DNA from: an uncultured Spirochaetales bacterium
GTDB lineage: Bacteria > Spirochaetota > Spirochaetia > SPDA01 > CAZSGZ01
Reading direction: 5' to 3'
DNA length: 64,000 nt
NCBI GenBank assembly: GCA_964440465.1
Contig: CAYTSI010000005.1
Span: forward strand, 151 to 64,150
Shown here one piece after another: positions 4,370 through 52,820 of this stretch. Position 1 is the stretch's first letter. The number at the start of each line of letters is the position of its first letter. The translations under genes were made by a program, and so were the position numbers. Below the pieces are notes generated by a model that ran no database searches, was not told the origin of the DNA, and saw only the letters and a program-made list of their open reading frames with translations.

Positions 4370-5815
4370 ATGCAGATAGATGAAAAAACGATACGGACGG
4401 TTGTCGAAGAGGTGTTAAAAGAGGTGAGCGCGGCGGCGGTGTCGTCCGCCTCGCCGCCCCGGACCCCTTCCCCGGCAGCCTCCTCTACATATCAGGGCTC
4501 ATTCAGTACCATGGACGCAGCCGTGCGCGCGGCGCATCAGGCGCATCTGGATTTAATGAACACGACGCTGGAAATACGGAGAAAAATGATCGATGCCATG
4601 CGGGAGACCATATGGTCCAATCTTTTTGTCCTGTCAAAAAAAGCGGTGGAGGAGACCGGCTTCGGCCGCACCGACGACAAGGTGAAGAAAAACCTTCTCG
4701 CGGCGAAGATGACACCCGGTGTGGAGGATTTAACGCCGACATCGTATACGGATGACCACGGACTTACCCTGACCGAACTCGCACCCTACGGCGTTATCGG
4801 GGCGATTGCTCCGAGTACGAACCCGACGGAGACGATTATCAGCAATGCCATTGGAATGGTAGCAGGCGGAAACACGGCGGTGTTTGGTCCCCACCCGGCC
4901 GCGAAGGAAGTTTCGAAATATACCATCTGCTTGTTAAACACGGCCATTCAGAAAGCCGGCGGACCGGCAAATGTTCTTACAACGGTGGACGAACCGACCA
5001 TCGAGGCCGCCCAGACGATGATGGACCATCCTCTCGTTTCGCTCTTAGTCGTGACCGGCGGCCCGGGAGTAGTAAAAGAGGCGATGAAACGGGCGAAAAA
5101 GGTCATTGCCGCGGGACCGGGGAACCCGCCGGTGGTGGTGGATGAAACCGCGGACATCGTGAAGGCCGGGAAAGATATCGTCGCGGGCGCGGGTTTGGAC
5201 AACAACATCATCTGTATTGACGAGAAAGAAGTCCTGGCGGTGGACTCTATTGCCGATCAGCTGAAGGCGGAAATGAAGAAAAACGGCGCCTTTGAACTGG
5301 ACCGGCAGCAGGCGGAGGCCCTGACGAAAATCGTCATTTCCGATCCCGGACGGCCGGGGCATGAAGGAATGGCGAATAAAAAATACGTGGGAAAAAACGC
5401 GTCCGTATTGGCGGACCTCATCGGCCTGAAGGTCCCCGAAGATACGCGCATCCTCATTGCCGAAGTCGACCGCGACCATCCGATGGTATGGACGGAACAG
5501 CTGATGCCCTTTATTCCGCTGGTGCGGATGAAGAGCGCCGATGAGGCGATCGATTTTGCCGTAGAATGCGAACACGGGTTTCGGCACACGGCAAGCATGC
5601 ATTCGAAAAACATCGAGCGGCTCTCAAGGATGGCGAAAGTCATGAACTGTTCCCTCTTTGTAAAAAACGGTTCGAATTTTAACGGCATGGCCTTCGGCGG
5701 CGCGGGCTACACCTCCTTTACCATTGCCAGTCCCACCGGCGACGGCTTTACCCGGGCGAGGACCTTTACCCGGGAACGGCGGTGTTCGCTCATTGATTAT
5801 TTTCGGATTGTGTAG
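4370..5815 (+). CDS. CoA-acylating aldehyde dehydrogenase (PduP/EutE-like) with N-terminal extension
   Basis: The 481-aa product belongs to the aldehyde dehydrogenase superfamily. It has the catalytic-Cys context GAGLDNNIICIDEKEV typical of EutE/PduP. An N-terminal amphipathic helix (KTIRTVVEEVLKEV) is followed by an Ala/Ser/Pro linker. Confidence 0.9.
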   Translation: MQIDEKTIRTVVEEVLKEVSAAAVSSASPPRTPSPAASSTYQGSFSTMDAAVRAAHQAHLDLMNTTLEIRRKMIDAMRETIWSNLFVLSKKAVEETGFGRTDDKVKKNLLAAKMTPGVEDLTPTSYTDDHGLTLTELAPYGVIGAIAPSTNPTETIISNAIGMVAGGNTAVFGPHPAAKEVSKYTICLLNTAIQKAGGPANVLTTVDEPTIEAAQTMMDHPLVSLLVVTGGPGVVKEAMKRAKKVIAAGPGNPPVVVDETADIVKAGKDIVAGAGLDNNIICIDEKEVLAVDSIADQLKAEMKKNGAFELDRQQAEALTKIVISDPGRPGHEGMANKKYVGKNASVLADLIGLKVPEDTRILIAEVDRDHPMVWTEQLMPFIPLVRMKSADEAIDFAVECEHGFRHTASMHSKNIERLSRMAKVMNCSLFVKNGSNFNGMAFGGAGYTSFTIASPTGDGFTRARTFTRERRCSLIDYFRIV

Positions 5816-5840
5816 GTTAAGGAAAATAGGAAGTGATGGA

Positions 5841-6113
5841 ATGAAATTAGGGAAAGTAATCGGAACGGTGGTGAGTACACAAAAGGTGGAGTCCTTCGAG
5901 GGGGTAAAGCTTCTTTTAGTACAGCCGTTAGATGAAAATTACGACGAGAAAGGCGGACCCTTAGCGGCGTGTGATACCGTTCAGGCGGGAGTTGGAGACA
6001 TTGTCCTTTATGAAGGCGGCCGGGAAGCCGCCCTGACGCTGGAAAACTGGTACAATCCGTCGGACGCGGCGGTAATGGCTATTGTCGACAGTACAAACCT
6101 GGAGGCAACCTAA
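5841..6113 (+). CDS. BMC vertex protein (BMC-P), paralog 3
   Basis: The product reads MKLGKVIGTVVSTQKVESFEGVKLLLVQP...DTVQAGVGDIVL. I trimmed the track ORF (5724) to the ATG at 5841, which is preceded by AGGAAG. The longer N-terminus overlaps the aldehyde dehydrogenase and looks non-coding. Confidence 0.85.
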   Translation: MKLGKVIGTVVSTQKVESFEGVKLLLVQPLDENYDEKGGPLAACDTVQAGVGDIVLYEGGREAALTLENWYNPSDAAVMAIVDSTNLEAT

Positions 6114-6388
6114 TGCTTGTGGCTAAAGTAATCGGAACGGTTGTCGCCACGCGGAAGCATCCCGTTTTACAGGGGTATAAGCTGTTAATTGTGCAGCCGA
6201 AGGGGCCTGACGGAACGGATGCCGGCGGGATCGAGATTGCCCTCGATACGGTACAGGCAGGGACCGGCGAAACGGTGCTGCTGTTGACGGAGGGCAACTC
6301 TTCGAGGATGATTATCGGCGACGACATGGCCCCGGTACGTGCGGTGGTGGTCGGCATTATCGATGAGGTACAGTACGATGCAGTATAA
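6113..6388 (+). CDS. BMC vertex protein (BMC-P), paralog 4
   Basis: The 91-aa product reads [29 protein letters not shown]...DTVQAGTGETVLL. Confidence 0.9.
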   Translation: MLVAKVIGTVVATRKHPVLQGYKLLIVQPKGPDGTDAGGIEIALDTVQAGTGETVLLLTEGNSSRMIIGDDMAPVRAVVVGIIDEVQYDAV

Positions 6389-40914: not shown

Positions 40915-41283
40915 TTACTCGATTGGATATAACTTGTAATAGTGTTCTTCTTGGGGGCCGTAAACCCATAAAAGAGGCCACGGAGCAAAGAAGAATGGAA
41001 TACTAGCAATAATAGCCCCTGCCTTTATCTCTTTTTCCAATTGAGCAGAAACTTCTTGGTATCCTTGTTTTTTTATTTTTACGTTGTAGGTGTTGCCAGC
41101 AAAATCACTCAATTCCGTTTTCACCGGAGTAGCTCCGACGTACCTATGATTAATGAATACATCGGATCCTTTCGGTTCACTATCAATCGAAACAACTGTT
41201 GTGCAACTTATTAGCGTAGCAATTAAAATAATAGATGTAATATTCTTGACGAAAATCATAAGCCTTTTAAAATTATAATACAT
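40915..41283 (-). CDS. PEGA-domain lipoprotein
   Basis: A lipobox (IILIATLISC) is followed by a PEGA-like segment (SEPKGSDVFINHRYVGATPVKTEL...YNVKIKKQGY). An alternative start exists at 41259. Confidence 0.6.
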   Translation of the reverse strand: MYYNFKRLMIFVKNITSIILIATLISCTTVVSIDSEPKGSDVFINHRYVGATPVKTELSDFAGNTYNVKIKKQGYQEVSAQLEKEIKAGAIIASIPFFFAPWPLLWVYGPQEEHYYKLYPIE

Positions 41284-41289
41284 GGCTGC

Positions 41290-42864
41290 CTACTCCGGCG
41301 GCATGGTGGTGAGGGTTAGAAACGCCTCTCCAACTTTTACGTCGGTGCTGCCCGTCTCGCTCTGCTTTTTTCGCAGTCCCCGTGTTTGAGCGACAACCGC
41401 CTTCGCGTCTCCAAACACTTCGTAACGCTCGCCGTCAATGTAATCGATAATGACGTTTGCCGGCGGCGGTTCCTTTGAGAAGGCCGTTACCATGAGATGT
41501 TCGACGCCGTACGGCGGGACAACTTCAAATTCGTACGAGTATTTCACTACCCGGTTAACCATATCCATGCCGATATAAAAGGATTCTTCTAAAAGCACCT
41601 TTTCTCCGGTTGCCAAATCGTAGGTAAGCTGGAGGAACGCCGGCTGGTTGACCTTGAAATAGAGCTGTAGAGATTCTCCGCCTGTAAAAACGAGAACATC
41701 TCCATTTCTGCCTCTGTTTGTCCATATGTCTACCTTCAGTCCCCCGTCGGTAAAGGCGCCGTCGGCTATGGCATACTGTGTTTTCAGTGCTTCTTCGGCG
41801 TTTTGCGGTTTTATGTCATATCCCCCGGGGGCGGAGGAAACCGGAAACTCGGCAAAACCGCTGCCGAGGCTTTGCCCCGTCTCGACCGACCTCGCGACGA
41901 CCATCAGTTCAATGGAATCGCCTTTTTCCCAGTATGTGCCCCGCACTGCAATTTTGCTCTGTCCCCGTGTAAGCCGGGTATTGACGAGATTTTCAAGTTT
42001 CCGTGAAGCATAATTGCCGAAAGCGCTGGTAAAGTCGGAGTTCTGATACAAAAGAGGCGGGACTTGAAAGGAGCCGCCTTGTACCTGCTGCGTGGCGAGC
42101 ATAACGACGATTTTGTCCAGCGCGGCGTCGAGGTCGGGGACAGAGCCTTTCTGCAGGGTGGTTATTTTATTTCTAATCTCACCTTCTAAGCGGAAAAAGG
42201 TGTCCGCGTTGGTAATCCCGCCGACATTTCCCGCGGGGAAAAAACCGCTTTCGTAGCTCCCTTCCGCTAAGACATTGAAAATTGACCGGTTTTCGAGTAC
42301 ATCGGAAAAATACGGCAGTATGCCGATATATATGTCGATGGCGGACCCGATATCTCCCGCGCGTTCGGCATTTTCCGCCCGGTTTTTCCCCTGGACGATC
42401 TTTTGAAGCGCCTCCGTCCCTCTGCTCAGGAACGTATTCCGAAGCGGCCCCTTCGCGGCGTAGGCGAGGGCGTAGTGATGCTTCCAGTCGCCTGCAATTT
42501 CAAAGTCGATGTTGGTCAGTTTCATATTGCTGATGCTCCTGCTGACCATGGATACACTGGAGGACGCCGTCCCGCCGCTATCGGCCGTCGACGTGGTAAT
42601 GGTACTGGAAACCTGTACCCTGATTTTACGAATTAAATCGTCTAACGCGCCGGTTTTCGCGGCTTCCAGGGACTCGGCATCATCCGCTCCCCGCTCAGCC
42701 ATCCCGAATCCGGTAATGTGCCGCGTATCGGAGTAGGGTGATTGTAAGCCGTACTCCCGCGCCCATTCCGGCAGGCTTTGAGCGCCGGCAGGTCCGGGAA
42801 CTAGTACCGCCGCAAAGAGAAAAAGCGGCAGCGCGGCATGGAGTGTCACTTTTTTCATCATCAC
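41290..42864 (-). CDS. Secreted protein, LPP20-like N-terminal region and DUF4384-like C-terminal region (tentative)
   Basis: A signal peptide (MMMKKVTLHAALPLFLFAAVLVPGPAGA) is present. The domain calls rest on my recollection of family patterns (ITGFGMAE...AKTGALDDLIRKIRVQV and a C-terminal beta-rich segment QLYFKVNQPAFLQLTY) and were not searched. Confidence 0.5.
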   Translation of the reverse strand: MMMKKVTLHAALPLFLFAAVLVPGPAGAQSLPEWAREYGLQSPYSDTRHITGFGMAERGADDAESLEAAKTGALDDLIRKIRVQVSSTITTSTADSGGTASSSVSMVSRSISNMKLTNIDFEIAGDWKHHYALAYAAKGPLRNTFLSRGTEALQKIVQGKNRAENAERAGDIGSAIDIYIGILPYFSDVLENRSIFNVLAEGSYESGFFPAGNVGGITNADTFFRLEGEIRNKITTLQKGSVPDLDAALDKIVVMLATQQVQGGSFQVPPLLYQNSDFTSAFGNYASRKLENLVNTRLTRGQSKIAVRGTYWEKGDSIELMVVARSVETGQSLGSGFAEFPVSSAPGGYDIKPQNAEEALKTQYAIADGAFTDGGLKVDIWTNRGRNGDVLVFTGGESLQLYFKVNQPAFLQLTYDLATGEKVLLEESFYIGMDMVNRVVKYSYEFEVVPPYGVEHLMVTAFSKEPPPANVIIDYIDGERYEVFGDAKAVVAQTRGLRKKQSETGSTDVKVGEAFLTLTTMPPE

Positions 42865-42909: not shown

Positions 42910-43671
42910 CTATACTCCTCGAACTTCGCAGTTGATGCCCGTTTCTCGGACGATTTCAGCCGCGCGGCGCAGTTCAGTCCCGAAATAGGGACAGAGCTCG
43001 CTGAACGCGGGGTCGAGGGTCGTGCCGGGCCTGAATTGCGTCAGAATGTACCTGCCCGCGCTTTGCGGGTCCCGGGCCGCCGAAGTATAAGCCGATTTCA
43101 GGAGTTCCGCTATTGCTGCCGCCTCCTCCGTCCCCGCTATACCCGGGGCCATGGTGGTGCGGAATTCGTGGCGCACCCCGGAAGAGATGATGATTTCAAT
43201 GCTTTGCCGCAGGGCGTTTTCCACAGTGTCGACAGCCGCGGATGCCGGAGGGACAGAGCTGCTGAGAAGGCCGTATTTCTCCGGGACCGTTTTGATGTCC
43301 ATGGCAATATAGTCGGTCCGTGCAAGCAGCGGACGAAGCAGGCGGGGAAAGCAGCCGTTCGTGTCGAGTTTTACTTTTAAACCGAGGTTTTTACAGAAAT
43401 CGATAAACCCTATCAGGTCCGTATGCAGAAGCGGTTCGCCGCCGGTAACGCAGACCCCCCCGAGGACGGAAGCGCGTTTTGCTACAAACCGCCGCACCTC
43501 TTCAATCGGCAGCAGGTCATCCGGAAACGGCGGTATAACGAGCTCGGGATTGTGGCAGTAGGGGCAGCGGAGGTTGCAGCCCGGTGTAAACACCGTGGCC
43601 GCAACCTCTCCCGGAAAGTCGATTAAGGTCGTTTTAACCAGCCCTGCCCTGGTAAGCGTCATGGCCGGCAC
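42910..43671 (-). CDS. nrdG: Anaerobic ribonucleoside-triphosphate reductase activating protein (radical SAM)
   Basis: The CNLRCPYCHN radical-SAM cluster motif is present, along with GGVCVTGGEPL, and the gene lies in the nrdD operon. Confidence 0.85.
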   Translation of the reverse strand: MPAMTLTRAGLVKTTLIDFPGEVAATVFTPGCNLRCPYCHNPELVIPPFPDDLLPIEEVRRFVAKRASVLGGVCVTGGEPLLHTDLIGFIDFCKNLGLKVKLDTNGCFPRLLRPLLARTDYIAMDIKTVPEKYGLLSSSVPPASAAVDTVENALRQSIEIIISSGVRHEFRTTMAPGIAGTEEAAAIAELLKSAYTSAARDPQSAGRYILTQFRPGTTLDPAFSELCPYFGTELRRAAEIVRETGINCEVRGV

Positions 43672-43691: not shown

Positions 43692-44228
43692 CTAGGAGAC
43701 GCCGGCTTCCGCAAGTGAAAACACCTGCTCCATGGTTTCGGTGTTATTCGCCCGAAACACCTCGTGATCCTGGACGTCGAAAAAGATCACCGTTGGAGAG
43801 GCAAGTACCTGATGCTCTATCGCCGAATCCATTCCTTCGGGGGTATCAACATCGACGGAACTGCCGGGCATGGAAAGCTTGTTTACATATTCTTTAACCG
43901 GAGGACAATTCGGGCATGTGCCGCGGTAAAAAAACGTATAGGAAGCGGCCGATTCCGCGATGTCCCGGGGAGGGGACCCGCCGGTGCCCATCTCTTTTCC
44001 CGCGAATTCCGGCTGCCTCGAGCCGTGTTTTATCATGTTTTTCGGTTCCGAAAACAGCTTTCGGTAGTCGTATTCCTCCCGCTTCCCCTTGTTCCAATTT
44101 GCCACGGAACGGTAATATCCGACAATCCGCGTATATACTTCGGTTTTCGTACCGGTCACGCCCCGCAGATGCTGTTGTAATTCGGCTATTTCTTTGTCCA
44201 CCTGTTCAACTGTTCGTGTCGCGTTCAT
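43692..44228 (-). CDS. Stand-alone glycyl-radical domain of class III RNR fused to a CxxC thioredoxin-fold domain
   Basis: The 178-aa product contains EVYTRIVGYYRSVANWNKGKREEY, the C-terminal glycyl-radical motif normally found at the end of NrdD. The C-terminal ~90 aa read FFYRGTCPNCPPVKEYV...SPTVIFFD, which is a Trx/NrdH-like fold. Its ATG overlaps the nrdD stop (ATGA). Confidence 0.7.
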   Translation of the reverse strand: MNATRTVEQVDKEIAELQQHLRGVTGTKTEVYTRIVGYYRSVANWNKGKREEYDYRKLFSEPKNMIKHGSRQPEFAGKEMGTGGSPPRDIAESAASYTFFYRGTCPNCPPVKEYVNKLSMPGSSVDVDTPEGMDSAIEHQVLASPTVIFFDVQDHEVFRANNTETMEQVFSLAEAGVS

Positions 44229-46351
44229 TTCTTCTCTCCCTTCTGTGTTTTAACCAGTTTCTGCTTTTCTGTTTGCAGTTCATCGAGCCGCCGCTGGATT
44301 TTCTCCCGTTCTTCATCGGCGCATTTCGGGCAGGCGAAATGTTCACCGTTTAAATATCCGTGTATCGGGCAGATAGAGAACGTCGGCGAGATGGTAAAAT
44401 AGGGGAGCCTGTAATTCCAGGCAATGGCGCGCACGAGATTTCTGCATGCCTCCCAGTTGTCCACGGCTTCACCCAGAAATCCATGGAATACAGTCCCCCC
44501 TGTATATTTAATTTGAAGCTCGTCCTGATGGTCGAGGGCCTCAAAAATGTCCGAAGTAAAATCGACGGGCATCTGCGTCGAATTGGTGTAGAAGGGCTCC
44601 TGAACGCCGCTGGTAATAATGTCCGGATACCGCTCTCTGTCGTGTTTTGCCAGCCTGTAGGAGGTGCTCTCCGCGGGTGTTGCCTCAAGATTGAACAGGT
44701 CTCCCGTGTCTTCCTGCAGGTCCGCAAGGTGCCGCCGCATGTAGTCGAGAATTTCCAGAGCAAATTCGCGGCCTGTTTCGGTGGTCATGTCCTCTCCTGA
44801 AAAATTAAGAGTGCATTCGTTCATCCCCACGATGCCGATAGTCGAAAAGTGGTTGTCCAGGTGTTTCAGGTACCGTTTGGTATATGGAAACAGTCCGGCT
44901 TCCATCAGCCTGTTGATTACCTTCCGTTTAATAGTGAGGGACTCCGCGGCGGTGTCCATCAGTTCGGTAAGCCGGTGGAAGAAATCCACTTTCGTGTTCG
45001 AAAGATATCCGATTCTCGGAAGGTTGATGGTTACCACCCCGATAGACCCGGTAAACTCGTCGGAACCGAAGAGGCCGCCCCCCCGTTTCCGGAGTTCCCG
45101 CTTGTCCAGCTGCAGCCGGCAGCACATGGAGCGGACATCCCCGGGATTCAGGTCGCTGTTGACGAAATTCTGAAAGTAGGGTGTTCCGTACTTCGAGGTC
45201 ATTTCAAACAGCAGTTTCGCGTTTTCCGAATCCCAGTTGAAATCGTCGGTAATGTTGTAGGTGGGTATAGGATATTGAAACCCCCGGCCGTTGGCGTCAC
45301 CGTCAATCATAAGATGAATGAAAGCCTTGTTGATGAGGTCCATCTCCCGCTGACAGTCGCCGTAGGTAAAGTCAAGATCTTCACCCCCCACAATTGCCGG
45401 CCGTTCCTGCAGGTCGGAAGGAACATTCCAGTCCAGGGTAATGTTGGTGAACGGCGCCTGACTTCCCCAGCGGGACGGTGTATTAACACCGAAAATAAAA
45501 CTCTGGATTGCCTGTTTTACCTGTTCGAAGCTTAAATCATCAATTTTTACAAAGGGGGCCAAGTAGGTGTCGAAACTCGAAAGCGCCTGCGCGCCGGCCC
45601 ATTCGTTCTGCATAATCCCTAAAAAATTGACAATCTGCTGAATTAAGGTGTTTAAGTGCTTTGCCGGTTTCGACGTAATTTTATCGGGAACGCCGCCTAA
45701 GCCTTCCATAATCAGCTGACGCAGGGACCAGCCGGCGCAGTAGCCGGAAAACATTGACAGATCGTGGATATGAAAATCGGCATTCTGATGGGCCATGGAA
45801 ACGTCCTCGGGATAGATGTTTTTAAGCCAGTAATTTGCCGTGATGGTACCCGAATTGTGAAGGACCAGCCCGCCTAATGAAAAATTAACGTTGGCGTTTT
45901 CGTTTACCCGCCAGTCGGACTGGCTTAAGTATCCGTCCATGGTTGAGCTGATGTCCAGTGTCAGCTTTCTGGTGTCCCTTATTATCTCATGTTTGGCCCG
46001 GTAGATAATATAGGCTTTTGCAATATCGAACTGCTTCCTTTCCATCAGGACCGTTTCCACTAAGTCCTGTATCTCCTCTATTGCCGGTACCGAGTTCGGA
46101 TGCCGTGCGGACATTACCTTCCGCATCCGTTCCTCCACCTGACTTGTAAGCTCCTCTACAAAGTCGAGGTCTTCCTCTCCCCGGACTGCCCGGACCGCTT
46201 TCCCGACGGCCCCGGCAATTTTCCATCGGTCATACTTTTCCAATTTCCCGTTTCTTTTAATAACCTGCCGTATCACTGCCCCTGCAGCCGGCTTCTCGGA
46301 ACTCTCTATGCCGAGAAACTCCTCCCAATAGCTGCGTCCTGTATGCTCCAA
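44225..46351 (-). CDS. nrdD: Anaerobic ribonucleoside-triphosphate reductase, large (core) polypeptide lacking the glycyl-radical tail
   Basis: An ATP-cone (VIKRNGKLEKYDRWKI) precedes the class III core (SMCCRLQLD, GSIGVVTINLPR). The Zn-ribbon ICPIHGYLNGEHFACPKC lies near the C-terminus, and the protein then ends in a charged helix. Confidence 0.9.
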   Translation of the reverse strand: MEHTGRSYWEEFLGIESSEKPAAGAVIRQVIKRNGKLEKYDRWKIAGAVGKAVRAVRGEEDLDFVEELTSQVEERMRKVMSARHPNSVPAIEEIQDLVETVLMERKQFDIAKAYIIYRAKHEIIRDTRKLTLDISSTMDGYLSQSDWRVNENANVNFSLGGLVLHNSGTITANYWLKNIYPEDVSMAHQNADFHIHDLSMFSGYCAGWSLRQLIMEGLGGVPDKITSKPAKHLNTLIQQIVNFLGIMQNEWAGAQALSSFDTYLAPFVKIDDLSFEQVKQAIQSFIFGVNTPSRWGSQAPFTNITLDWNVPSDLQERPAIVGGEDLDFTYGDCQREMDLINKAFIHLMIDGDANGRGFQYPIPTYNITDDFNWDSENAKLLFEMTSKYGTPYFQNFVNSDLNPGDVRSMCCRLQLDKRELRKRGGGLFGSDEFTGSIGVVTINLPRIGYLSNTKVDFFHRLTELMDTAAESLTIKRKVINRLMEAGLFPYTKRYLKHLDNHFSTIGIVGMNECTLNFSGEDMTTETGREFALEILDYMRRHLADLQEDTGDLFNLEATPAESTSYRLAKHDRERYPDIITSGVQEPFYTNSTQMPVDFTSDIFEALDHQDELQIKYTGGTVFHGFLGEAVDNWEACRNLVRAIAWNYRLPYFTISPTFSICPIHGYLNGEHFACPKCADEEREKIQRRLDELQTEKQKLVKTQKGEKK

Positions 46352-46367: not shown

Positions 46368-46832
46368 TCATGACGATTTATTTGACAACTTTCCTATTTC
46401 ATCGATAAATTGATCAACATTTTCAAACATCCGGTATACCGAGGCAAACCGGACATACCCCACCATATCAACGTCGAATAATTTTGAAAGCACCATTTCC
46501 CCTAATTTCCGCGAGGTAATCTCATGGGTGCTTTTTGCCTGCATGGCCGCTTCATCTTCCAATTCGTGAAGCATTTCTTCTACTTTCAGCTGGGGGACCG
46601 GCCGTTTTTCCAGGGAAATTTGAATACCCCGTTCGAGTTTGGTCAAATCGAACTGCTGCCGCCGGCCGTCACGCTTTACAACCATCAGCTTTTTTTCTTC
46701 AATGTGTTCGTAGGATGTGAATCGATACCCGCAGTGCAGACATTCCCTCCGCCGGCGTATGGACGTGCCGCTGGCGTTCTGTCTGGACTCGAGGACCCTG
46801 TCTTCGTGACTTTCACAAAGCGGGCATTTCAC
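46368..46832 (-). CDS. nrdR: Transcriptional repressor NrdR
   Basis: The product reads (V)KCPLCESHEDRVLESRQ...RRRRECLHCGYRFTSYE, a Zn-ribbon, followed by an ATP-cone. The start was trimmed to GTG 46832, after GGGGGAAGG. The track's longer N-terminus runs through the promoter region. Confidence 0.85.
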   Translation of the reverse strand: MKCPLCESHEDRVLESRQNASGTSIRRRRECLHCGYRFTSYEHIEEKKLMVVKRDGRRQQFDLTKLERGIQISLEKRPVPQLKVEEMLHELEDEAAMQAKSTHEITSRKLGEMVLSKLFDVDMVGYVRFASVYRMFENVDQFIDEIGKLSNKSS

Positions 46833-46864
46833 AACCTTCCCCCAATTAACGCGGCCGCCCAAAA

Positions 46865-46880
46865 CCTCTATATATAGTGG
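46865..46880. promoter_or_regulatory. Candidate NrdR box 1 (CCTCTATATATAGTGG)
   Basis: This is an AT-centred 16-bp imperfect palindrome upstream of nrdR. It resembles the reported NrdR-box consensus (acaCwAtATaTwGtgt). Confidence 0.45.
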
Positions 46881-46907
46881 AATTAGCCGCAACAATATCA
46901 CTATATC

Positions 46908-46923
46908 ACACCATATATTGTGT
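46908..46923. promoter_or_regulatory. Candidate NrdR box 2 (ACACCATATATTGTGT)
   Basis: This near-perfect 16-bp palindrome matches the NrdR-box consensus well. Its centre is 43 bp from box 1. Confidence 0.55.
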
Positions 46924-47039
46924 TGCAACACAATTCTAATATTTTTATCGACATTTCTTGCCAAACCCTAAACGGATGTGTGTAAAATTTTCGGTAACGG
47001 GTATATACTGATACCAATGACCACTGTAAGGAGATATGA

Positions 47040-50000
47040 ATGAAACGGACCGTAATGCTGATTGCCCTTTTACTAGGCAGCATACTGCTTGTTTTTACCG
47101 GCTGCACCAGGGAGGAAGCCCCCGGGGCGAAACCTGCTACGGAGGAAAACACGGAGGAGATGAGTGAAAGCCAAAAAATCCAGCGGCAGCTGTATCAAGA
47201 CGCGGCAATTAACGAGGACCTAGCCTCCTATGACATTACCTACTACGAGCCGGACTCGATACAAACGGTAGCGGCGCCGGTGAAGGAATCGGACGAACCG
47301 TTTCAAATTGTCGATTACGGTCCCGTCGAGGAGCTTCCCCCGGAGGTCGTTTATCCGTCGATGTATGTCGTTTTCTCCCAGCCGGTGGTGCCTCTGCGGC
47401 AGCTGGGAGAACCTATGCGTTCGTCTGACATTATGTCAATTGACCCGCCCATACAAGGTACCTTCCGATGGTACGGGACCAGGCTTTTGAGTTTTGACGC
47501 CGATGAAAAGGCCCTTCCCCAGCGGCGTTACACCGTTTCAATTTCGGATACCGCGCGGTCATTAGGCGGCAAAGAGCTGACGGGAGAGAAATCCTTCAGT
47601 TTTCATACCGAATATCTTTCGATTCGGGACTTTTTTACCGGTACAGCGGAGGGGGACTACAGCTTAGATGATGTGCCCCCAGACGAAGCAAAAACAATCC
47701 ACATCGTATTTTCCCACAAGGTCAACCTCAATGTTATCAAAAATTATCTGTCCGTCGAAGCGGGAGGCCGCGGCTATAATTTTACCATTGCCCGTCCCGA
47801 CGACCCGGAAAATCGGCTGTCCGAAGAAATCAAGGAACGGACGGCAGTCCTGCATGTGGAAGGTCTGTTCCCTGAAGATACCGATGTTACCGTAACAGTA
47901 CGGAAAGGGGCGCGGAGTGAAGCCGATTTTATCGGTACGCCGGTGAACATAACACGGAGTTTTCATACCCTCAGGCCCTTCCGGTTTGTGGATTACGATA
48001 CCTGTTCCTGGTCCTTTCCCCGGAGCAGGCAGGGCGAAGCAAATCCGGTATATCTAAAGTTCAGTCATTCCGTAAAAGCCGAGGACCTCACGGGTAAGGT
48101 CCGCACCAATCCGGCAATGGAAATAACGGAAGAGAATGTCGAGGTTTACCGGGACCGGGTCCGGATCAACAATCTGCCCGTTGCCCCCGAGTCGGTATAC
48201 ACTCTGTTTCTGGACGCCGGTATTACCGACGTGTACGGGAGAAAACTACAAAGGAGCGAACAGGTCCGAGTCGAGGTCCCTCCGGCGGAACGCTACGCCT
48301 ATTTTCCGAATACCGGGCCCCGGATGCTGGAGGCCGCGTTCCCGAAGCGGATTATGTGGGAGCACCAGAATGTTTTCGAAGGCCTGTGGAAGGCGGATAC
48401 CGTTTCCGACCCCTACGGGACGTTCAGTCATGAGGAGCTCAGGCCCTACAATTTCGGAGAAATCGAGAGGAATAAACGGTATTTTGAGGTCTACAATTTC
48501 AAGGACTATTTGAACAGTGAAGGATACGGCTGGGTCGGCTTCTCCTGGAACTTCGGGAAGAGGAACAACGACGGCACCATGCCGACATGGACGAAACGGG
48601 ACCTTCGGCTGCAGGTTACCGATTTGGGCCTTACGGTCCGCCACGGTTACAATAAAATTATTACCCTTGTTACTTCCCTCGCGACAGGCGAGGCGGTAGA
48701 GGGTGCCGAGGTAAGCATTACGCGGAAACAGGCCGTTAAAAAGAGCACCGAAACGGATGCCGACGGCTTAGCGGTATTCGAGCTGGAAGAAGGGGAATAC
48801 TTTGAATATTTCGGGGTCCCCGGACGGACCTATGAAAATGAACTGCGGATACGGGTCAAGTACGGAAACGACAAAATAGAATTTAAACCGAATTACAGTC
48901 ACGATACGTGGCGTTCCAATATATACAACACCGCGGCGCCGACACAGATCGGGACCCCGAATATGGTCACCTATCTGTTTACCGACCGCAAACTGTACAA
49001 GCCGGGGGAAACGGTCACCTTCAGAGGTATCGACCGGAACCAGCAGTACGGTAAATACACGCCTTTTTCCGGCGGGTACGATATCGCCGTTCGTGAGTCC
49101 CGGTACCGCGGAAGAGAAATAACCCGTTTCCGCGGTGAAACAACCGGTTCCGGCGGGTTGTACGGGAGTTTTACCCTGCCGGAGGACGCGGAACCGGGGT
49201 GGTATGAAATTGCTTACAGCCGGGACGAAAAAACGGTCCGGGAGCTGTTCCAGGTGGCCCACTTCCGGCGGCTTCTCTTTTCCGTCGATATGTCGAGTCC
49301 CGACATTACCCATTATCAGGGGGACACGGTGAGTTTTACCGTTGCCTCGGAATATCTTGCAGGCGGGGCTCTCAGCCGGGGAAATTACGAGGTCTATTGG
49401 TCGAAACGTCCGGTTACCTACACGCCGCCGGGAGATGACTGGAAGGATTACCGGTTCGGACCGGAAGGGTACGACAGCAGACACAGCCTGGAAACTGCCG
49501 AAGGCAGCCTGCCGCCGACGGGTACTATCAATGTGAAGCAGAAAACATCACCCGAGGGCATCGAGGGGAGGGCCTATGTTTATGAAGCAGAAGCGCGAAT
49601 CAGCGACGTCAGCAATCAGCTTGTAGCAAAGCGGGAGGGTGTAACGGTCCATCCCGCCGCTTTTTACATCGGCGCCCGGGTGAAGGACGCTGCCGGCTCC
49701 TGGTATACCTTTGTGGAAAAGGGAAAGGAGATGGAGTGTGAGGTCCGGCTGGTTACACCGGAAGGCGGCCTTGTAAAAGACGGAGAAAAAATCAGCCTTA
49801 CAGGTGAATTGTATAAAATCGAGTGGAAACTGGCCCAGCAGCAGGGGGTGTATGATACCATCAACTCCCGCTGGGAGCGGGTGGAGACGAAAATCGCCGA
49901 CGAGGAAATAACCCTAAGCAGCGGAAAGGGGACGGCGCGGTTTACCCCCGGGGAGAGCGGTTCGTATTATATCAAATTTACCGCCGAGGACGCCATGGAG

Positions 50001-52820
50001 CGGAAAGCGGTAACGGAACTGAGCTTGTACGCCACCGGCGGCGGGTGGGTCCGCTGGGGGTCCGGAGACGCGGACATGCTGGAGCTGAAACCGGACAAGC
50101 AGCTGTATAAGCCGGGAGATACGGCGAAAATCCTGCTGCAGTCTCCCATTCCCGAAGGGGACTACCTGATAACCGTCGAGCGGGAGGGAATTTTCAATGA
50201 GAGAAAAATCAGCGTGGAAGGATCGGCGAAGCTGATCGAGGTCCCGATTACGGAGGACTATCTGCCGGTTGTGTATGTCAGCGTTTCCTCCTATACGGTG
50301 AGGACCGGCAAACCGGAGCATACCTACTTCGAACCCGATTTAGACAAGCCGAAGGGACTCTACGGCGTTACGCCGCTGCGGGTTGAAACGGCGGCGAAAT
50401 TGATCGATATCAGTATCGAACCGGCGGCACCTGCCTATTTGCCGGGGGCTGAGGCGGAAGTGGTCCTTACCGCGACACAAAACGGCAGGCCCGTGGAAAA
50501 CGCGGAGCTTACCTTTTTGGCAGTCGACCGCGGGGTTTTAGACCTCATCAACTACCATATTACGGACCCGCTTGCATTTTTCTACAGTGAAGGACGGTTT
50601 CCCCTGGCCGTGGAGGGGGCGGATTCCCGGTCCCTCTTAATCGACCCGGTTACCTACGACGTGCCCGACCTGGCAGGGGGCGACGGGAAAGACGGAGAAG
50701 ACGAGGGAGGCGCCGGTATGGGGATGAAAAGGCGGGAGGATTTTAACCCTACCGCGGTTTTCGAGCCGTTTCTCAGTACCGATGAAGAGGGCAGAGTAAC
50801 GGTGCGCTTTACCCTTCCCGATACCCTTACAACGTACCGCTTAACCGCCGTTGCGGTACGGGACAACAGCTTCGGTATTCAGGAAAAAGAGCTGAAGGTC
50901 CAGAATCCCATCAACGTAAAAACCGCCTTTCCGCGGCGTCTCCGCTACCGGGACACCGCCGTCGGCAGCGTGCTGCTTACCAATTTAGACGGCAAAGAGC
51001 ACGAAGTTACCCTGAATATCGAATCGGACATTCTCGGTATCGGAGGAAAAAACTCCAAGACCGTTGCCATACCCGCGGCGTCCACCTTGGAAGTGCCGTT
51101 TCAGCTCTTAGCTGTTTCGCCGGGTACGGCGGAAATTACGGTCACCACGAAGTCCGAAGTCCTGGAAGAACAGCTTGTGGAAACACTAATTGTTGAAAAG
51201 CCCTACATTTTCGAAACATTTGCCACTATCGGGCAGGCGGAGGACTCCGCGGGAGAGGGGATTGTACTTCCTTCCTATGTCGACGACGATGAGGGGAGCC
51301 TTACCATTAACCTTTCCGGTTCCCGGGCCGCCTCGTTAGGAGAGGCAATCGACTATGTAATCGGATATCCGTACGGCTGCATGGAGCAGCGGGCGAGCAA
51401 ACTCTTGCCGCTGGTGCTTTTAGAGGATTATGTCGACGATTTCGCTTTGGAAAATCCCGTCGGGGACATCAGGGGAACGGTGCAGGCCGACCTCGACTTG
51501 TGGGGAGCGTATCAGCGTTCCGACGGGGGGTTCCCCTTCTGGCCGGTCCGGGAAGGTGTATATTCATCCTACTATGCCACTGTCCGTGCCGGACACCTCC
51601 TGGCCCTCGCACGGGACCGGGGCTACACGATTCCGGACGGCCTCAGTGTTCCCGGGCTGCTCGACTATCTGGCCAATCCCCCCTCCTCCGCGCGGGGGAA
51701 CAATTACCTCATGCTCTACGGGCTCTATGTCCGCTCCCTCCTCGGTGCCGGAGTTTCCGGGGAGGCGGCCCGCTATTTTGCCAGGGGTGATGAAATTGGT
51801 ATTTCAGGATACGGATTTTTAGGGCTTATTTACCTGGACCAAAACCAGGACAATCAGGCGGAGCAGTGCCTGAACAGAATTAAGCAGTTTGTCCGGCCCG
51901 GTACCCGGTCCGTTGATCTAACGGAAACATACGAAAGCTCCTCGTTTTATAATTCCCAGGTTGAGCAGCTGGCGCTGTTTCTCATGCTTTACAGCCGGAT
52001 CGACCCCGAAAGCGATATGGTAACCAGGATTACCAACACCCTCATGGACAGACAGAAGGGGGGAATCTGGAAAAATACCGCCGATACAAACTGGGCCATT
52101 CAGGCCTTTACCTCATTACTGCAAGCCGAAGGCGGGGGAGGGCCCGATTTTGCCGCGGAGGTGACAATCGACGGTGAGACAATCGCGGAAGCTGAAATCG
52201 ATTCGATCGCGGAAATTTTCAACCGGAAGCTGCCCCTGTCGGGAAGCGTGCTTACGGGATTCGACCGGGACACCATGTATCCCCTTACATTTACAAAAGA
52301 GGGGGCGGGCCGCCTCTACTATACCGCGAGTCTGCGTTACGCAATTCCTTCGGAAATAAGCTACCCCCGGGACGAGGGGATAGGGATTGTCTATGAAATC
52401 AGCACCGTAGACGGGCAGAAGGTGGAGGGTGCTGCCCTTACCGTCGGTAAAACGTACCGTCTGAAAGCGGTAGTTTCCAGCCACCGCGGCCGGAGCTACG
52501 TAGCTGTCCGTCTGCCCGTGCCGTCGGGGGCGGAAATCCTCGATGCCGCTTTCGTTACCACACCGAAGTACGACGAATTTCAGGACCCGGACGTCGACTG
52601 GTCCCGGTATGTTCCATTCGGGTCGAAAATATTCGACAACGAAGTGCGCTATTTCTGGGACGAGTTCCCCCGGGGGCGGCAGGAGGTGAGTTTTCTCTTC
52701 CGGACGACCAGCGGCGGTGTTTTTCCCACGCCTCCGGCAACGGCGGAATGTATGTACGAACCGGAAATTTTCGGCCGGACCGGGGGGAGGATCTTTATTA
52801 TCAAACGGGATGAGGAGTAG
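47040..52820 (+). CDS. Alpha-2-macroglobulin family lipoprotein (thioester-containing)
   Basis: The 1926-aa product has a lipobox (LLVFTGC). A thioester motif, GCMEQ, is encoded at 51378-51389. The length and repeated beta-rich MG-like architecture are typical of bacterial A2M. Confidence 0.9.
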   Translation: MKRTVMLIALLLGSILLVFTGCTREEAPGAKPATEENTEEMSESQKIQRQLYQDAAINEDLASYDITYYEPDSIQTVAAPVKESDEPFQIVDYGPVEELPPEVVYPSMYVVFSQPVVPLRQLGEPMRSSDIMSIDPPIQGTFRWYGTRLLSFDADEKALPQRRYTVSISDTARSLGGKELTGEKSFSFHTEYLSIRDFFTGTAEGDYSLDDVPPDEAKTIHIVFSHKVNLNVIKNYLSVEAGGRGYNFTIARPDDPENRLSEEIKERTAVLHVEGLFPEDTDVTVTVRKGARSEADFIGTPVNITRSFHTLRPFRFVDYDTCSWSFPRSRQGEANPVYLKFSHSVKAEDLTGKVRTNPAMEITEENVEVYRDRVRINNLPVAPESVYTLFLDAGITDVYGRKLQRSEQVRVEVPPAERYAYFPNTGPRMLEAAFPKRIMWEHQNVFEGLWKADTVSDPYGTFSHEELRPYNFGEIERNKRYFEVYNFKDYLNSEGYGWVGFSWNFGKRNNDGTMPTWTKRDLRLQVTDLGLTVRHGYNKIITLVTSLATGEAVEGAEVSITRKQAVKKSTETDADGLAVFELEEGEYFEYFGVPGRTYENELRIRVKYGNDKIEFKPNYSHDTWRSNIYNTAAPTQIGTPNMVTYLFTDRKLYKPGETVTFRGIDRNQQYGKYTPFSGGYDIAVRESRYRGREITRFRGETTGSGGLYGSFTLPEDAEPGWYEIAYSRDEKTVRELFQVAHFRRLLFSVDMSSPDITHYQGDTVSFTVASEYLAGGALSRGNYEVYWSKRPVTYTPPGDDWKDYRFGPEGYDSRHSLETAEGSLPPTGTINVKQKTSPEGIEGRAYVYEAEARISDVSNQLVAKREGVTVHPAAFYIGARVKDAAGSWYTFVEKGKEMECEVRLVTPEGGLVKDGEKISLTGELYKIEWKLAQQQGVYDTINSRWERVETKIADEEITLSSGKGTARFTPGESGSYYIKFTAEDAMERKAVTELSLYATGGGWVRWGSGDADMLELKPDKQLYKPGDTAKILLQSPIPEGDYLITVEREGIFNERKISVEGSAKLIEVPITEDYLPVVYVSVSSYTVRTGKPEHTYFEPDLDKPKGLYGVTPLRVETAAKLIDISIEPAAPAYLPGAEAEVVLTATQNGRPVENAELTFLAVDRGVLDLINYHITDPLAFFYSEGRFPLAVEGADSRSLLIDPVTYDVPDLAGGDGKDGEDEGGAGMGMKRREDFNPTAVFEPFLSTDEEGRVTVRFTLPDTLTTYRLTAVAVRDNSFGIQEKELKVQNPINVKTAFPRRLRYRDTAVGSVLLTNLDGKEHEVTLNIESDILGIGGKNSKTVAIPAASTLEVPFQLLAVSPGTAEITVTTKSEVLEEQLVETLIVEKPYIFETFATIGQAEDSAGEGIVLPSYVDDDEGSLTINLSGSRAASLGEAIDYVIGYPYGCMEQRASKLLPLVLLEDYVDDFALENPVGDIRGTVQADLDLWGAYQRSDGGFPFWPVREGVYSSYYATVRAGHLLALARDRGYTIPDGLSVPGLLDYLANPPSSARGNNYLMLYGLYVRSLLGAGVSGEAARYFARGDEIGISGYGFLGLIYLDQNQDNQAEQCLNRIKQFVRPGTRSVDLTETYESSSFYNSQVEQLALFLMLYSRIDPESDMVTRITNTLMDRQKGGIWKNTADTNWAIQAFTSLLQAEGGGGPDFAAEVTIDGETIAEAEIDSIAEIFNRKLPLSGSVLTGFDRDTMYPLTFTKEGAGRLYYTASLRYAIPSEISYPRDEGIGIVYEISTVDGQKVEGAALTVGKTYRLKAVVSSHRGRSYVAVRLPVPSGAEILDAAFVTTPKYDEFQDPDVDWSRYVPFGSKIFDNEVRYFWDEFPRGRQEVSFLFRTTSGGVFPTPPATAECMYEPEIFGRTGGRIFIIKRDEE

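Follow-up and report, generated by a model that had tools for sequence, protein, structure and literature searches.

A class III ribonucleotide reductase with its glycyl-radical loop on a separate, thioredoxin-bearing protein in spirochaetes

In the textbook class III ribonucleotide reductase (RNR), one catalytic chain, NrdD, holds its own glycyl radical. This radical is made by the activase NrdG and passes to a cysteine of the NrdD finger loop. We analysed a 64,000-nucleotide stretch of DNA from an uncultured Spirochaetales bacterium (assembly GCA_964440465.1, contig CAYTSI010000005.1, positions 151 to 64,150; hereafter the window), in which the glycine loop is encoded apart from the rest of NrdD, by a small gene that also encodes a thioredoxin fold. 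The textbook picture is contradicted across the sampled spirochaetes, oral and gut Treponema included.

Single-chain NrdD/NrdG systems (phage T4, E. coli, Thermotoga maritima, Prevotella copri, Neisseria bacilliformis) have the same barrel, finger loop and Zn ribbon as the one described here, and share with it the glycine motif, the ATP-cone, an adjacent nrdG and NrdR control. The double-cysteine finger loop and the glutamate match those of thioredoxin-capable NrdD, the N. bacilliformis enzyme being thioredoxin-dependent. In contrast to all of these, the window system has its glycine loop on a separate polypeptide, about 55 extra helix residues, and a thioredoxin fold on the radical subunit. 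Large RNR surveys treat class III C-termini solely as an integral radical domain (PMC9669993).

By analogy, the small protein (178 residues here, 40–108 in other lineages) may be compared with GrcA/YfiD and with Y06I of phage T4, small stand-alone glycyl-radical proteins that serve a large barrel and have a cognate radical-SAM activase. GrcA, however, is related to the C-terminus of PFL and not of NrdD, and it replaces PFL's own radical domain only after damage. Such spare parts are known for formate lyases only, and whether others exist is “yet to be determined” (2026 review, PMC13450708), a question that becomes addressable here in a natural system.

Catalytic chains in pieces are also found among split RNR genes (NrdJa/NrdJb of Pseudomonas aeruginosa, “genes-in-pieces” NrdA of Aeromonas phage Aeh1), whose products reassemble non-covalently or by splicing, and phage nrdD genes are interrupted by introns or inteins. 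Split RNR genes are reportedly also the subject of a 2015 study by Crona. Examples from phages and the NrdJa/NrdJb pair are described in PMC3653736. Unlike in these cases, where the break is elsewhere or is spliced out, the break described here parts the radical-bearing loop from the barrel, and does so in a cellular lineage.

A dithiol redoxin is covalently attached to an RNR subunit in Grx::NrdB of Facklamia ignava, where the fused redoxin is an efficient reductant and so provides an experimental precedent, and in the single grx::nrdD fusion in RefSeq, from Lachnospiraceae bacterium TWA4 (PMC6187632). In the window system, unlike in these fusions, the redoxin lies at the C-terminus of a detached radical subunit and is of the small MJ0307-like thioredoxin type, not GrxC; the unsplit NrdD-CPNC thioredoxin fusion is its sister state. 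A looser analogy may be drawn with class I NrdA/NrdB, in which a large catalytic subunit obtains its radical from a small subunit docked by a terminal segment. The small subunits are, however, unrelated (a ferritin-like metallo-radical protein versus a glycyl loop), and class I radical transfer is long-range.

Neither an NrdD with a separately encoded glycyl-radical loop nor an NrdD spare part is described in the literature searched, which left many subscription papers outside, so that a prior mention is possible. The apparent novelty lies in the two-subunit architecture of a class III RNR and in a radical subunit that carries its own redoxin.

Two genes in place of one

The operon lies on the minus strand, in the order nrdR, nrdD core, 178-residue open reading frame (ORF), nrdG (Table 1). 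In profile searches the core matched an ATP-cone, Pfam NRDD over positions 1–538 of 562 (593 bits) and the NCBIfam equivalog PRK08270 over positions 2–664 of 684 (1087 bits), so that only the extreme C-terminus of a normal NrdD is missing from it. The small ORF matched just this missing end (NRDD 532–562 of 562; PRK08270 648–682 of 684) through the segment EVYTRIVGYYRSVANWNKGKREEY; its radical-domain matches were to NRDD profiles only, and no homology to the PFL C-terminal radical domain was found. The core has the 10-stranded barrel, the beta-A Cys205, the finger loop M409-C410-C411-R412 and Glu556. Its last canonical element is the Zn ribbon, with a motif of the same type as in the T. maritima enzyme (PMC4493059), and its C-terminal end reads ...ICPIHGYLNGEHFACPKCADEEREKIQRRLDELQTEKQKLVKTQKGEKK followed by the stop codon. 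The glycyl-radical loop, which canonically lies about 12–16 residues past the Zn ribbon in the same chain, is absent from the core.

The stop codon of the core overlaps the ATG of the small ORF, which puts the two ORFs in a -1 frame relation, and the sequence GGGAGAG, resembling a ribosome-binding site, stands 7–13 nt upstream of that ATG. A preliminary description, made from the letters of this DNA, had proposed such an arrangement: a core ending past its Zn ribbon in a charged helix, its stop overlapping the next start, and then an ORF with its own ribosome-binding site, a charged helix, the canonical glycyl-radical motif and a thioredoxin-like CxxC domain. It had kept a frameshift or sequencing artefact as the alternative. 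Its structural reading is supported by the profile matches above and by the structure predictions below, and the artefact alternative is refuted by what follows.

Three independent assemblies, two of them ENA microbial-mat metagenomes and the third a JGI metagenome, show an identical two-ORF junction. At E<=1e-3 the small protein matched 993 relatives, and every one of the best 120 is 152–196 residues long. A survey at one genome per species gave at least 570 loci with a relative of the small protein, and the best 80 were examined. Of these, 79 are labelled as spirochaetes (Treponema, Spirochaetales, Marispirochaeta and others), with cultured isolates of T. socranskii (ATCC 35535), T. bryantii (NK4A124) and Marispirochaeta among them, and one is a metagenome-assembled genome (MAG) labelled Collinsella. 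In all 80 the glycine motif is separate from the core, in an open frame of 162–347 codons that is never continuous with it, and the order nrdR, core, small gene, nrdG recurs in related loci wherever sequence is available.

The distance from core stop to small-gene start, measurable in 74 loci, ranges from -4 to +346 bp and covers all three relative frames. Therefore, no single indel could restore one ORF, and an indel, a programmed frameshift or read-through is excluded as a general route to a single chain. The -4 overlap was found in 8 of the 74 loci, the window counted. Translational coupling, which had been suggested for this junction, thus stands for the window and seven other loci, and is not a conserved property of the family.

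A sequencing or assembly frameshift was rejected, since three assemblies agree and 80 of 80 relatives are split, and the spacers, up to 346 bp long and in all three frames, led to the same verdict for a programmed frameshift. Relative to an 87%-identical orthologue, the ratio of non-synonymous to synonymous substitutions (dN/dS) of the small ORF is 0.26 overall, 0.12 in the helix and glycine loop and 0.36 in the linker. The small ORF is under purifying selection, and with the conservation of the family this ratio dismisses a pseudogene.

Split inteins consist of fragments of about 100 and about 35 residues, with Cys or Ser at position 1 and a terminal HN followed by Cys, Ser or Thr. In 73 core/small pairs, the core runs 21–32 residues past the last Zn-ribbon cysteine, and 25–38 residues precede EVY in the small protein. 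These flanks are charged helix, too short for intein halves, and the N-terminal Cys/Ser block and terminal HN motif are absent from both; a split intein or trans-splicing was rejected on these grounds. The two-gene arrangement is confirmed as genuine and is not an artefact. Annotation does not reflect it: the core is named as a complete reductase, and the small protein variously as hypothetical, glutaredoxin or reductase.

The helix pair and the thioredoxin-bearing subunit

About 55 residues come between the Zn ribbon and the glycine motif across the break in the window. In the 73 pairs, the core tail has strong hydrophobic residues fixed at positions 8, 12, 15, 22 and 23 after CxxC, and the small N-terminus shows a clean 3-4-3-4-3 heptad pattern, with a/d hydrophobics fully conserved at five positions. 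The mean net charges of the two segments are complementary (+1.2 for the core tail, -2.4 for the small N-terminus); their lengths are not correlated (Spearman -0.06). AlphaFold2 predicted the helix of the small subunit at residues 7–22, with a predicted local distance difference test score (pLDDT) of about 76–86. Both helices were predicted in a model of the concatenated core and small protein made with core homologues only (675–704 and 715–733 in the concatenated numbering, pLDDT about 70–82).

Unsplit relatives lack this insertion. In P0121, P0128, P0141, P0150 and P0466, CPxC is followed by EVY(T/S)R(I/V)xGY within about 4 residues, the ribbon joining the glycine loop directly, as in CPICGKPAEVYSRITGYYR of P0121 and CPHCQEITEVYTRVVGYYR of P0141. 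A close relative among them, P0466 (locus L207, 3001–5610), is an unsplit chain of 869 residues with core, glycine loop and thioredoxin domain, in an nrdR-nrdD-nrdG operon. Its core is 76% identical to that of the window, and its radical-thioredoxin C-terminus is 40–45% identical to spirochaete small subunits, versus 28–30% to other unsplit fusions. The alignments of P0466 to small subunits begin just past their N-terminal helix, and at its junction, CPRCGGEAEVYTRIVGYYR, neither helix is present. Since so close an unsplit relative lacks both, the helix pair goes with the split, and the earlier statement that the helix insertion is absent from canonical NrdD held for all these chains, above all for P0466. 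This co-occurrence is the strongest, still indirect, argument that the helices may substitute for the lost covalent link. Their sequences suggest that the two would pair with each other.

Four parts follow one another in the small ORF: first the helix, then the glycyl-radical motif RIVG37YYR, a disordered linker and, at the C-terminal end, a CPNC thioredoxin fold. A 23-sequence family alignment shows no variation at G37 or its flanks, and the motif is canonical. The same alignment was used for the AlphaFold2 prediction of the small protein, in which the glycine-loop region of the isolated chain is not meaningful. The linker (pLDDT <50 at about residues 58–86) varies in length and sequence across the alignment. 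For residues ~95–177 a thioredoxin fold was predicted with pLDDT 88–97, with the topology beta-alpha-beta-alpha-beta-beta-alpha (strands 96–101, 122–126, 146–150 and 156–160; helices 108–116, 130–138 and 163–177), the CxxC at the N-terminus of helix 1 and a cis-Pro loop. Its best Foldseek matches in the PDB were thioredoxins (E 4e-5, probability 1.00). Nearest in sequence are the small MJ0307-type thioredoxins (TIGR00411, E 4.6e-4; PDB 1FO5, E 0.024), with matches below curated cut-offs. The family alignment shows no variation at C105, C108 or P145 either. The comparison with relatives that the preliminary description had proposed gave a conserved fusion to thioredoxin as well as a conserved split.

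In an alignment to T. maritima NrdD (4COI), C125 corresponds to C205, SCCR 328–331 to MCCR 409–412, and E495 to E556. We take C125 to be the conserved beta-A cysteine of the family. E495 is the proposed proton-donor glutamate (positions as in PMC9669993). Double-cysteine finger loops go with disulfide-based, thioredoxin-dependent reduction; the finger-loop methionine is linked to formate use, and its loss marks thioredoxin-only enzymes (PMC9669993). The residues of the thiol type (C410/C411, C205 and Glu556) are all found in the core, which makes the use of a dithiol reductant plausible. M409 is kept and the thioredoxin-only mark is absent; the window enzyme falls in the majority group, whose members could use formate or thioredoxin (PMC9669993). 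The tethered thioredoxin domain would then be a candidate for the turnover reductant.

Proposed mechanism and alternatives

We consider it likely that the two proteins make up a genuine two-polypeptide class III RNR, in which the radical and a tethered dithiol reductant both come with the small subunit. Since the core lacks a radical domain, the small subunit is indispensable to it. NrdG would install a stable radical on G37, and the glycine loop would enter the barrel in trans, in the way it does in single-chain enzymes. In the docking geometry that we suggest, the core's basic C-terminal helix would zip up with the acidic helix at the N-terminus of the small subunit, beside the Zn ribbon, and so replace the covalent link. 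The flexible linker of 30–45 residues would let the thioredoxin domain swing in and re-reduce the Cys205-Cys410/411 disulfide at each turnover, and a cellular reductase would recharge it. By analogy with the C-terminal cysteine tails of class I and II enzymes, the tethered fold suggests a built-in electron shuttle. In one single-chain NrdD the glycyl-radical domain moves as a rigid body and can no longer be detected when the enzyme is inhibited by dATP (PMC11226230). For activation, NrdG has to gain access to a glycine inside the barrel, and a free radical domain of 20 kDa (or 5 kDa) could be separately labelled, activated and titrated.

Four observations weigh against the proposed two-subunit mechanism. 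The concatenated AlphaFold2 model had a mean pLDDT of 56, with the glycine loop and thioredoxin domain below 45, and gave no contacts. Split pairs of Chloroflexota and Halanaerobiales have no helix pair, and the idea that the helices are needed for any split NrdD is rejected for this reason. No reductase to recharge the thioredoxin domain was identifiable in the window, and neither a thioredoxin reductase nor another redox partner is among the genes flanking the operon. Finally, since M409 is retained, formate could serve as sole or additional reductant, and the thioredoxin domain may act otherwise.

A further idea, compatible with this mechanism and held only tentatively, casts the small subunit as an exchangeable radical cartridge. 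An O2-damaged 20-kDa subunit would be swapped and the 80-kDa core spared, the new piece perhaps being activated by NrdG off the enzyme, as an NrdD counterpart of GrcA/YfiD. O2 cleaves the NrdD chain at the radical glycine (PMC12288474). Replacement of the small subunit after oxygen damage would be plausible; the helices would allow reversible docking. In related loci, 29 of the 41 core-to-small spacers longer than 60 bp carry at least one NrdR box (a 16-mer within 3 mismatches of the consensus); all loci combined, 610 kb, contain just 79 such sites. These boxes frequently adjoin a TTGACA-like hexamer, for example in T. bryantii. Separate transcription of the small gene and nrdG is therefore possible, and many Treponema probably transcribe the two from their own NrdR-controlled second promoter inside the operon. 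The idea would also fit the orphan small-subunit genes of the Treponema MAG locus L015 and of viral contigs such as L099. However, in the window lineage, unlike in many Treponema, core and small gene overlap and the upstream promoter is common to both, and the viral genes are orphans as judged within 4–5 kb of each. Moreover, a core without a radical domain makes the small protein a required subunit and not a spare of the kind that GrcA is for PFL; of the likeness to GrcA/YfiD drawn in the preliminary description, the small stand-alone radical protein remains and the spare role falls. An exchangeable subunit, if found, would give a glycyl-radical enzyme other than PFL its first spare part or cartridge, in a naturally two-component class III RNR. 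That, in addition, phages or mobile islands with the radical-domain gene alone, whether or not a thioredoxin domain is attached, would re-arm or seize a host NrdD core is a doubtful extension.

Somewhat unlikely, in our estimate, is neutral gene fission, in which the junction tolerates a break and the helix pair is a later compensatory fix, with no functional advantage. The 150 representatives of 50%-identity clusters that are closest to the core comprise 62 with the glycine loop in the same chain, 72 that stop 13–57 residues past the beginning of the Zn ribbon and have no glycine motif, and 16 whose state is not clear; for many of them the split state was read from the protein end alone, and it was verified for a subset. 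Of the 62, 14 have more than 90 residues past the loop, including several CPNC thioredoxin domains and two NrdG fusions. In rough, distance-based neighbour-joining trees, the spirochaete split clade adjoins unsplit NrdD fused to CPNC thioredoxin (P0121, P0125, P0128, P0229), and it also has as a neighbour a phage-like clade in which the core likewise terminates in a charged helix. On the rough tree of the 142 closest representatives the split and unsplit states are intermingled, as neutral fission would have it, and parsimony gives at least 18 changes, a rough figure. The clade is rich in inteins and homing-endonuclease-like inserts, so a mobile element perhaps made the first break; inteins occur in many relatives, and in one phage-like contig (L084) the core is separated from a 61-residue radical ORF by a DUF7487 gene and nrdG. 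The split RNR genes of phages (PMC3653736) are a precedent. Against neutrality stand the split in all 80 best genomes, the strong conservation of both helices, the presence of only one unsplit form (P0466) among the 120 closest core clusters, and the separate NrdR-regulated promoters that appear to have evolved ahead of the small gene.

The same junction appears to have been cut many times in other lineages. A spirochaete-only invention is rejected, as the cut is also found in Chloroflexota, Halanaerobiales, a MAG labelled Nanoarchaeota and phage-like contigs. For the window system, the most economical history would be a single-chain ancestor with NrdD, glycine loop and thioredoxin domain, then fission at the Zn-ribbon/glycine-loop junction with gain of the helix pair, and then fixation in the sampled spirochaete lineages. 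P0466 is either a basal survivor or a re-fusion; as it falls within the spirochaete split clade on the rough tree, re-fusion may be the case and not ancestral survival.

It is also unlikely that the thioredoxin fold has a role other than turnover reductant, either as a redox sensor gating docking or activation or as a protector of the radical domain, formate or free thioredoxin then doing the reduction. The methionine of MCCR, linked to formate chemistry (PMC9669993), and the “formate”-type label given to the core in the JGI annotation would fit such a role, as would the splits outside spirochaetes (Chloroflexota, Halanaerobiales, the Nanoarchaeota-labelled MAG, phage-like contigs), none of which has a thioredoxin domain. 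It is opposed by the invariance of CPNC and cis-Pro, by the presence of the Glu and Cys residues for disulfide chemistry, by the occurrence of the thioredoxin fusion in unsplit relatives as well, and by the fused glutaredoxin that works as a reductant in another RNR (PMC6187632).

A sequencing or assembly frameshift, a pseudogene, or the restoration of one chain by programmed frameshifting or trans-splicing is extremely improbable: such a reading has in its favour nothing but the prior expectation of a one-chain NrdD and the -1 frame relation at the window ATGA, and it conflicts with the agreement of three assemblies, the spacers of up to 346 bp with their own ribosome-binding sites and promoters, the purifying selection, and junction flanks without the length or motifs of split-intein halves.

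Feature coordinates, regulation and related loci

Table 1. Positions of the features of the split nrdD operon in the window, and make-up of split loci in other lineages
Feature	Location	Coordinates	Strand	Remarks
nrdR	window	46368..46832	-	transcriptional repressor of RNR genes; TIGR00244, 169.5 bits over residues 45-193
Two NrdR-box-like 16-mers	window	46865-46880 and 46908-46923	-	upstream of nrdR
Promoter-like site	window	46928-46900	-	from promoter scan; overlaps the NrdR-box-like 16-mers
nrdD core	window	44225..46351	-	708 residues
Zn-ribbon ligands C661, H664, C674, C677	window	44321..44371	-	CxxH...CxxC; invariant columns
Core C-terminal charged amphipathic helix	window	44228..44320	-	residues 678-708; upstream arm of the inserted helix pair
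Stop/start overlap ATGA	window	44225..44228	-	core TGA over small-ORF ATG
Small subunit ORF	window	43692..44228	-	178 residues
N-terminal amphipathic helix region	window	44142..44228	-	residues 1-29 (predicted helix 7-22); downstream arm of the pair
Glycyl-radical loop	window	44049..44141	-	E30-VYTRIVG37YYRSVANWNKGKREEY...; Gly37 codon 44118-44120
Variable disordered linker	window	43953..44048	-	about residues 61-92
Thioredoxin-fold domain	window	43692..43952	-	C105-P-N-C108 and cis-Pro motif P145-T-V
nrdG activase	window	42910..43671	-	radical-SAM; TIGR02495, 170.9 bits; directly 3' of the small ORF
Split nrdD	phage-like contig L086			core with helical tail, overlapped by 63-residue ORF MNKNKEELKKELNDLRALRQEIL...EVYSRIVGY; helix and glycine loop, no thioredoxin
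Split nrdD	phage-like contig L084			core, DUF7487, nrdG, then 61-residue glycine-loop ORF
Split nrdD	Pelolinea-type Chloroflexota L088-L090			core of 677-693 residues, 53-57-residue ORF, nrdG
Split nrdD	Halanaerobiales L091			core with intein, nrdG, 47-residue ORF
Split nrdD	MAG labelled Nanoarchaeota, L092			nrdR, core, 44-residue ORF, nrdG

In the whole 64-kb window, the two NrdR-box-like sites upstream of nrdR are the only ones, against 0.04 expected, and the operon of this organism is probably driven by a single regulated promoter there. Gene callers give nrdR 154 residues; its true start at ~46832 is about residue 45 of the 198-residue mechanical ORF. That ORF, with a TTG start, is ~44 codons too long, the excess (46833-46964) spanning the NrdR boxes and the promoter. 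For nrdG, gene callers place the start at an ATG 9 nt further downstream, giving 250 residues. The operon is flanked upstream by a gene on the opposite strand (47040-52820, +) for a 1926-residue bacterial alpha-2-macroglobulin-like protein, and downstream (40915-42864, -) by genes for a 524-residue protein without Pfam hits and a PEGA-domain protein.

NrdR boxes lie between core and small gene in many Treponema, often in the near-perfect form ACACTATATTTAGTGT with a TTGACA-like hexamer. Examples are L075 (spacer upstream of 4001), L012, L032, L038, L039, L052, L063, L068 and L071.

A search with the 63-residue protein of L086 gave 82 proteins, all of 40–108 residues and matching the NRDD C-terminus alone; no NCBIfam model specific for stand-alone radical domains was found. 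The DUF7487 gene of L084 (353 residues, 5116-6177) may be a mobile insert that either led to the break or made use of it. Of the 80 viral loci with the best core matches, 70 are unsplit and 7 have no loop; in three of these seven, a loop ORF lies 85–2055 nt downstream.

Several contigs carry a radical-domain gene as an orphan, within a view limited to 4–5 kb around the gene. In the Treponema MAG locus L015 (3980-4519), a 179-residue small-subunit gene with glycine loop and CPNC thioredoxin has no nrdD core or nrdG within 4 kb; its neighbours (XRE-type helix-turn-helix, DUF6361 and PLD-like genes) resemble a mobile or defence island. The viral contig L099 (IMGVR_UViG_3300037245_000992), which is outside the 80 best core-bearing viral contigs, encodes at 4986-5486 a spirochaete-type protein of 166 residues with glycine loop and thioredoxin, alongside primase/helicase and GroES-like genes and without core or nrdG within 5 kb. 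About 18 more viral contigs (L094-L102, L104, L105, L110-L113, L122-L124) have frames of 45–161 codons with the NrdD glycine loop only, many with an N-terminal amphipathic helix, and no NrdD core was detected within 5 kb of them. In a Candidatus Nealsonbacteria MAG (L093, 4001-4288), an orphan 95-residue protein matches the Zn-ribbon end and the glycine loop of NrdD; its gene has a Fur-family regulator on one side and a hemerythrin gene on the other, and there is no core in the vicinity.

Some relatives of the core depart from it in other ways. P0165, P0239, P0246, P0211 and P0225 are NrdD-like paralogues without the CC finger loop, the Zn ribbon or the glycine loop and with long low-complexity C-termini, some of which finish with a thioredoxin-like segment (VPTLVV); these proteins have probably lost catalytic activity. 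In P0222 and P0270, NrdD is fused C-terminally to NrdG, with the CPWC radical-SAM motif past the glycine loop, a trend opposite to fission.

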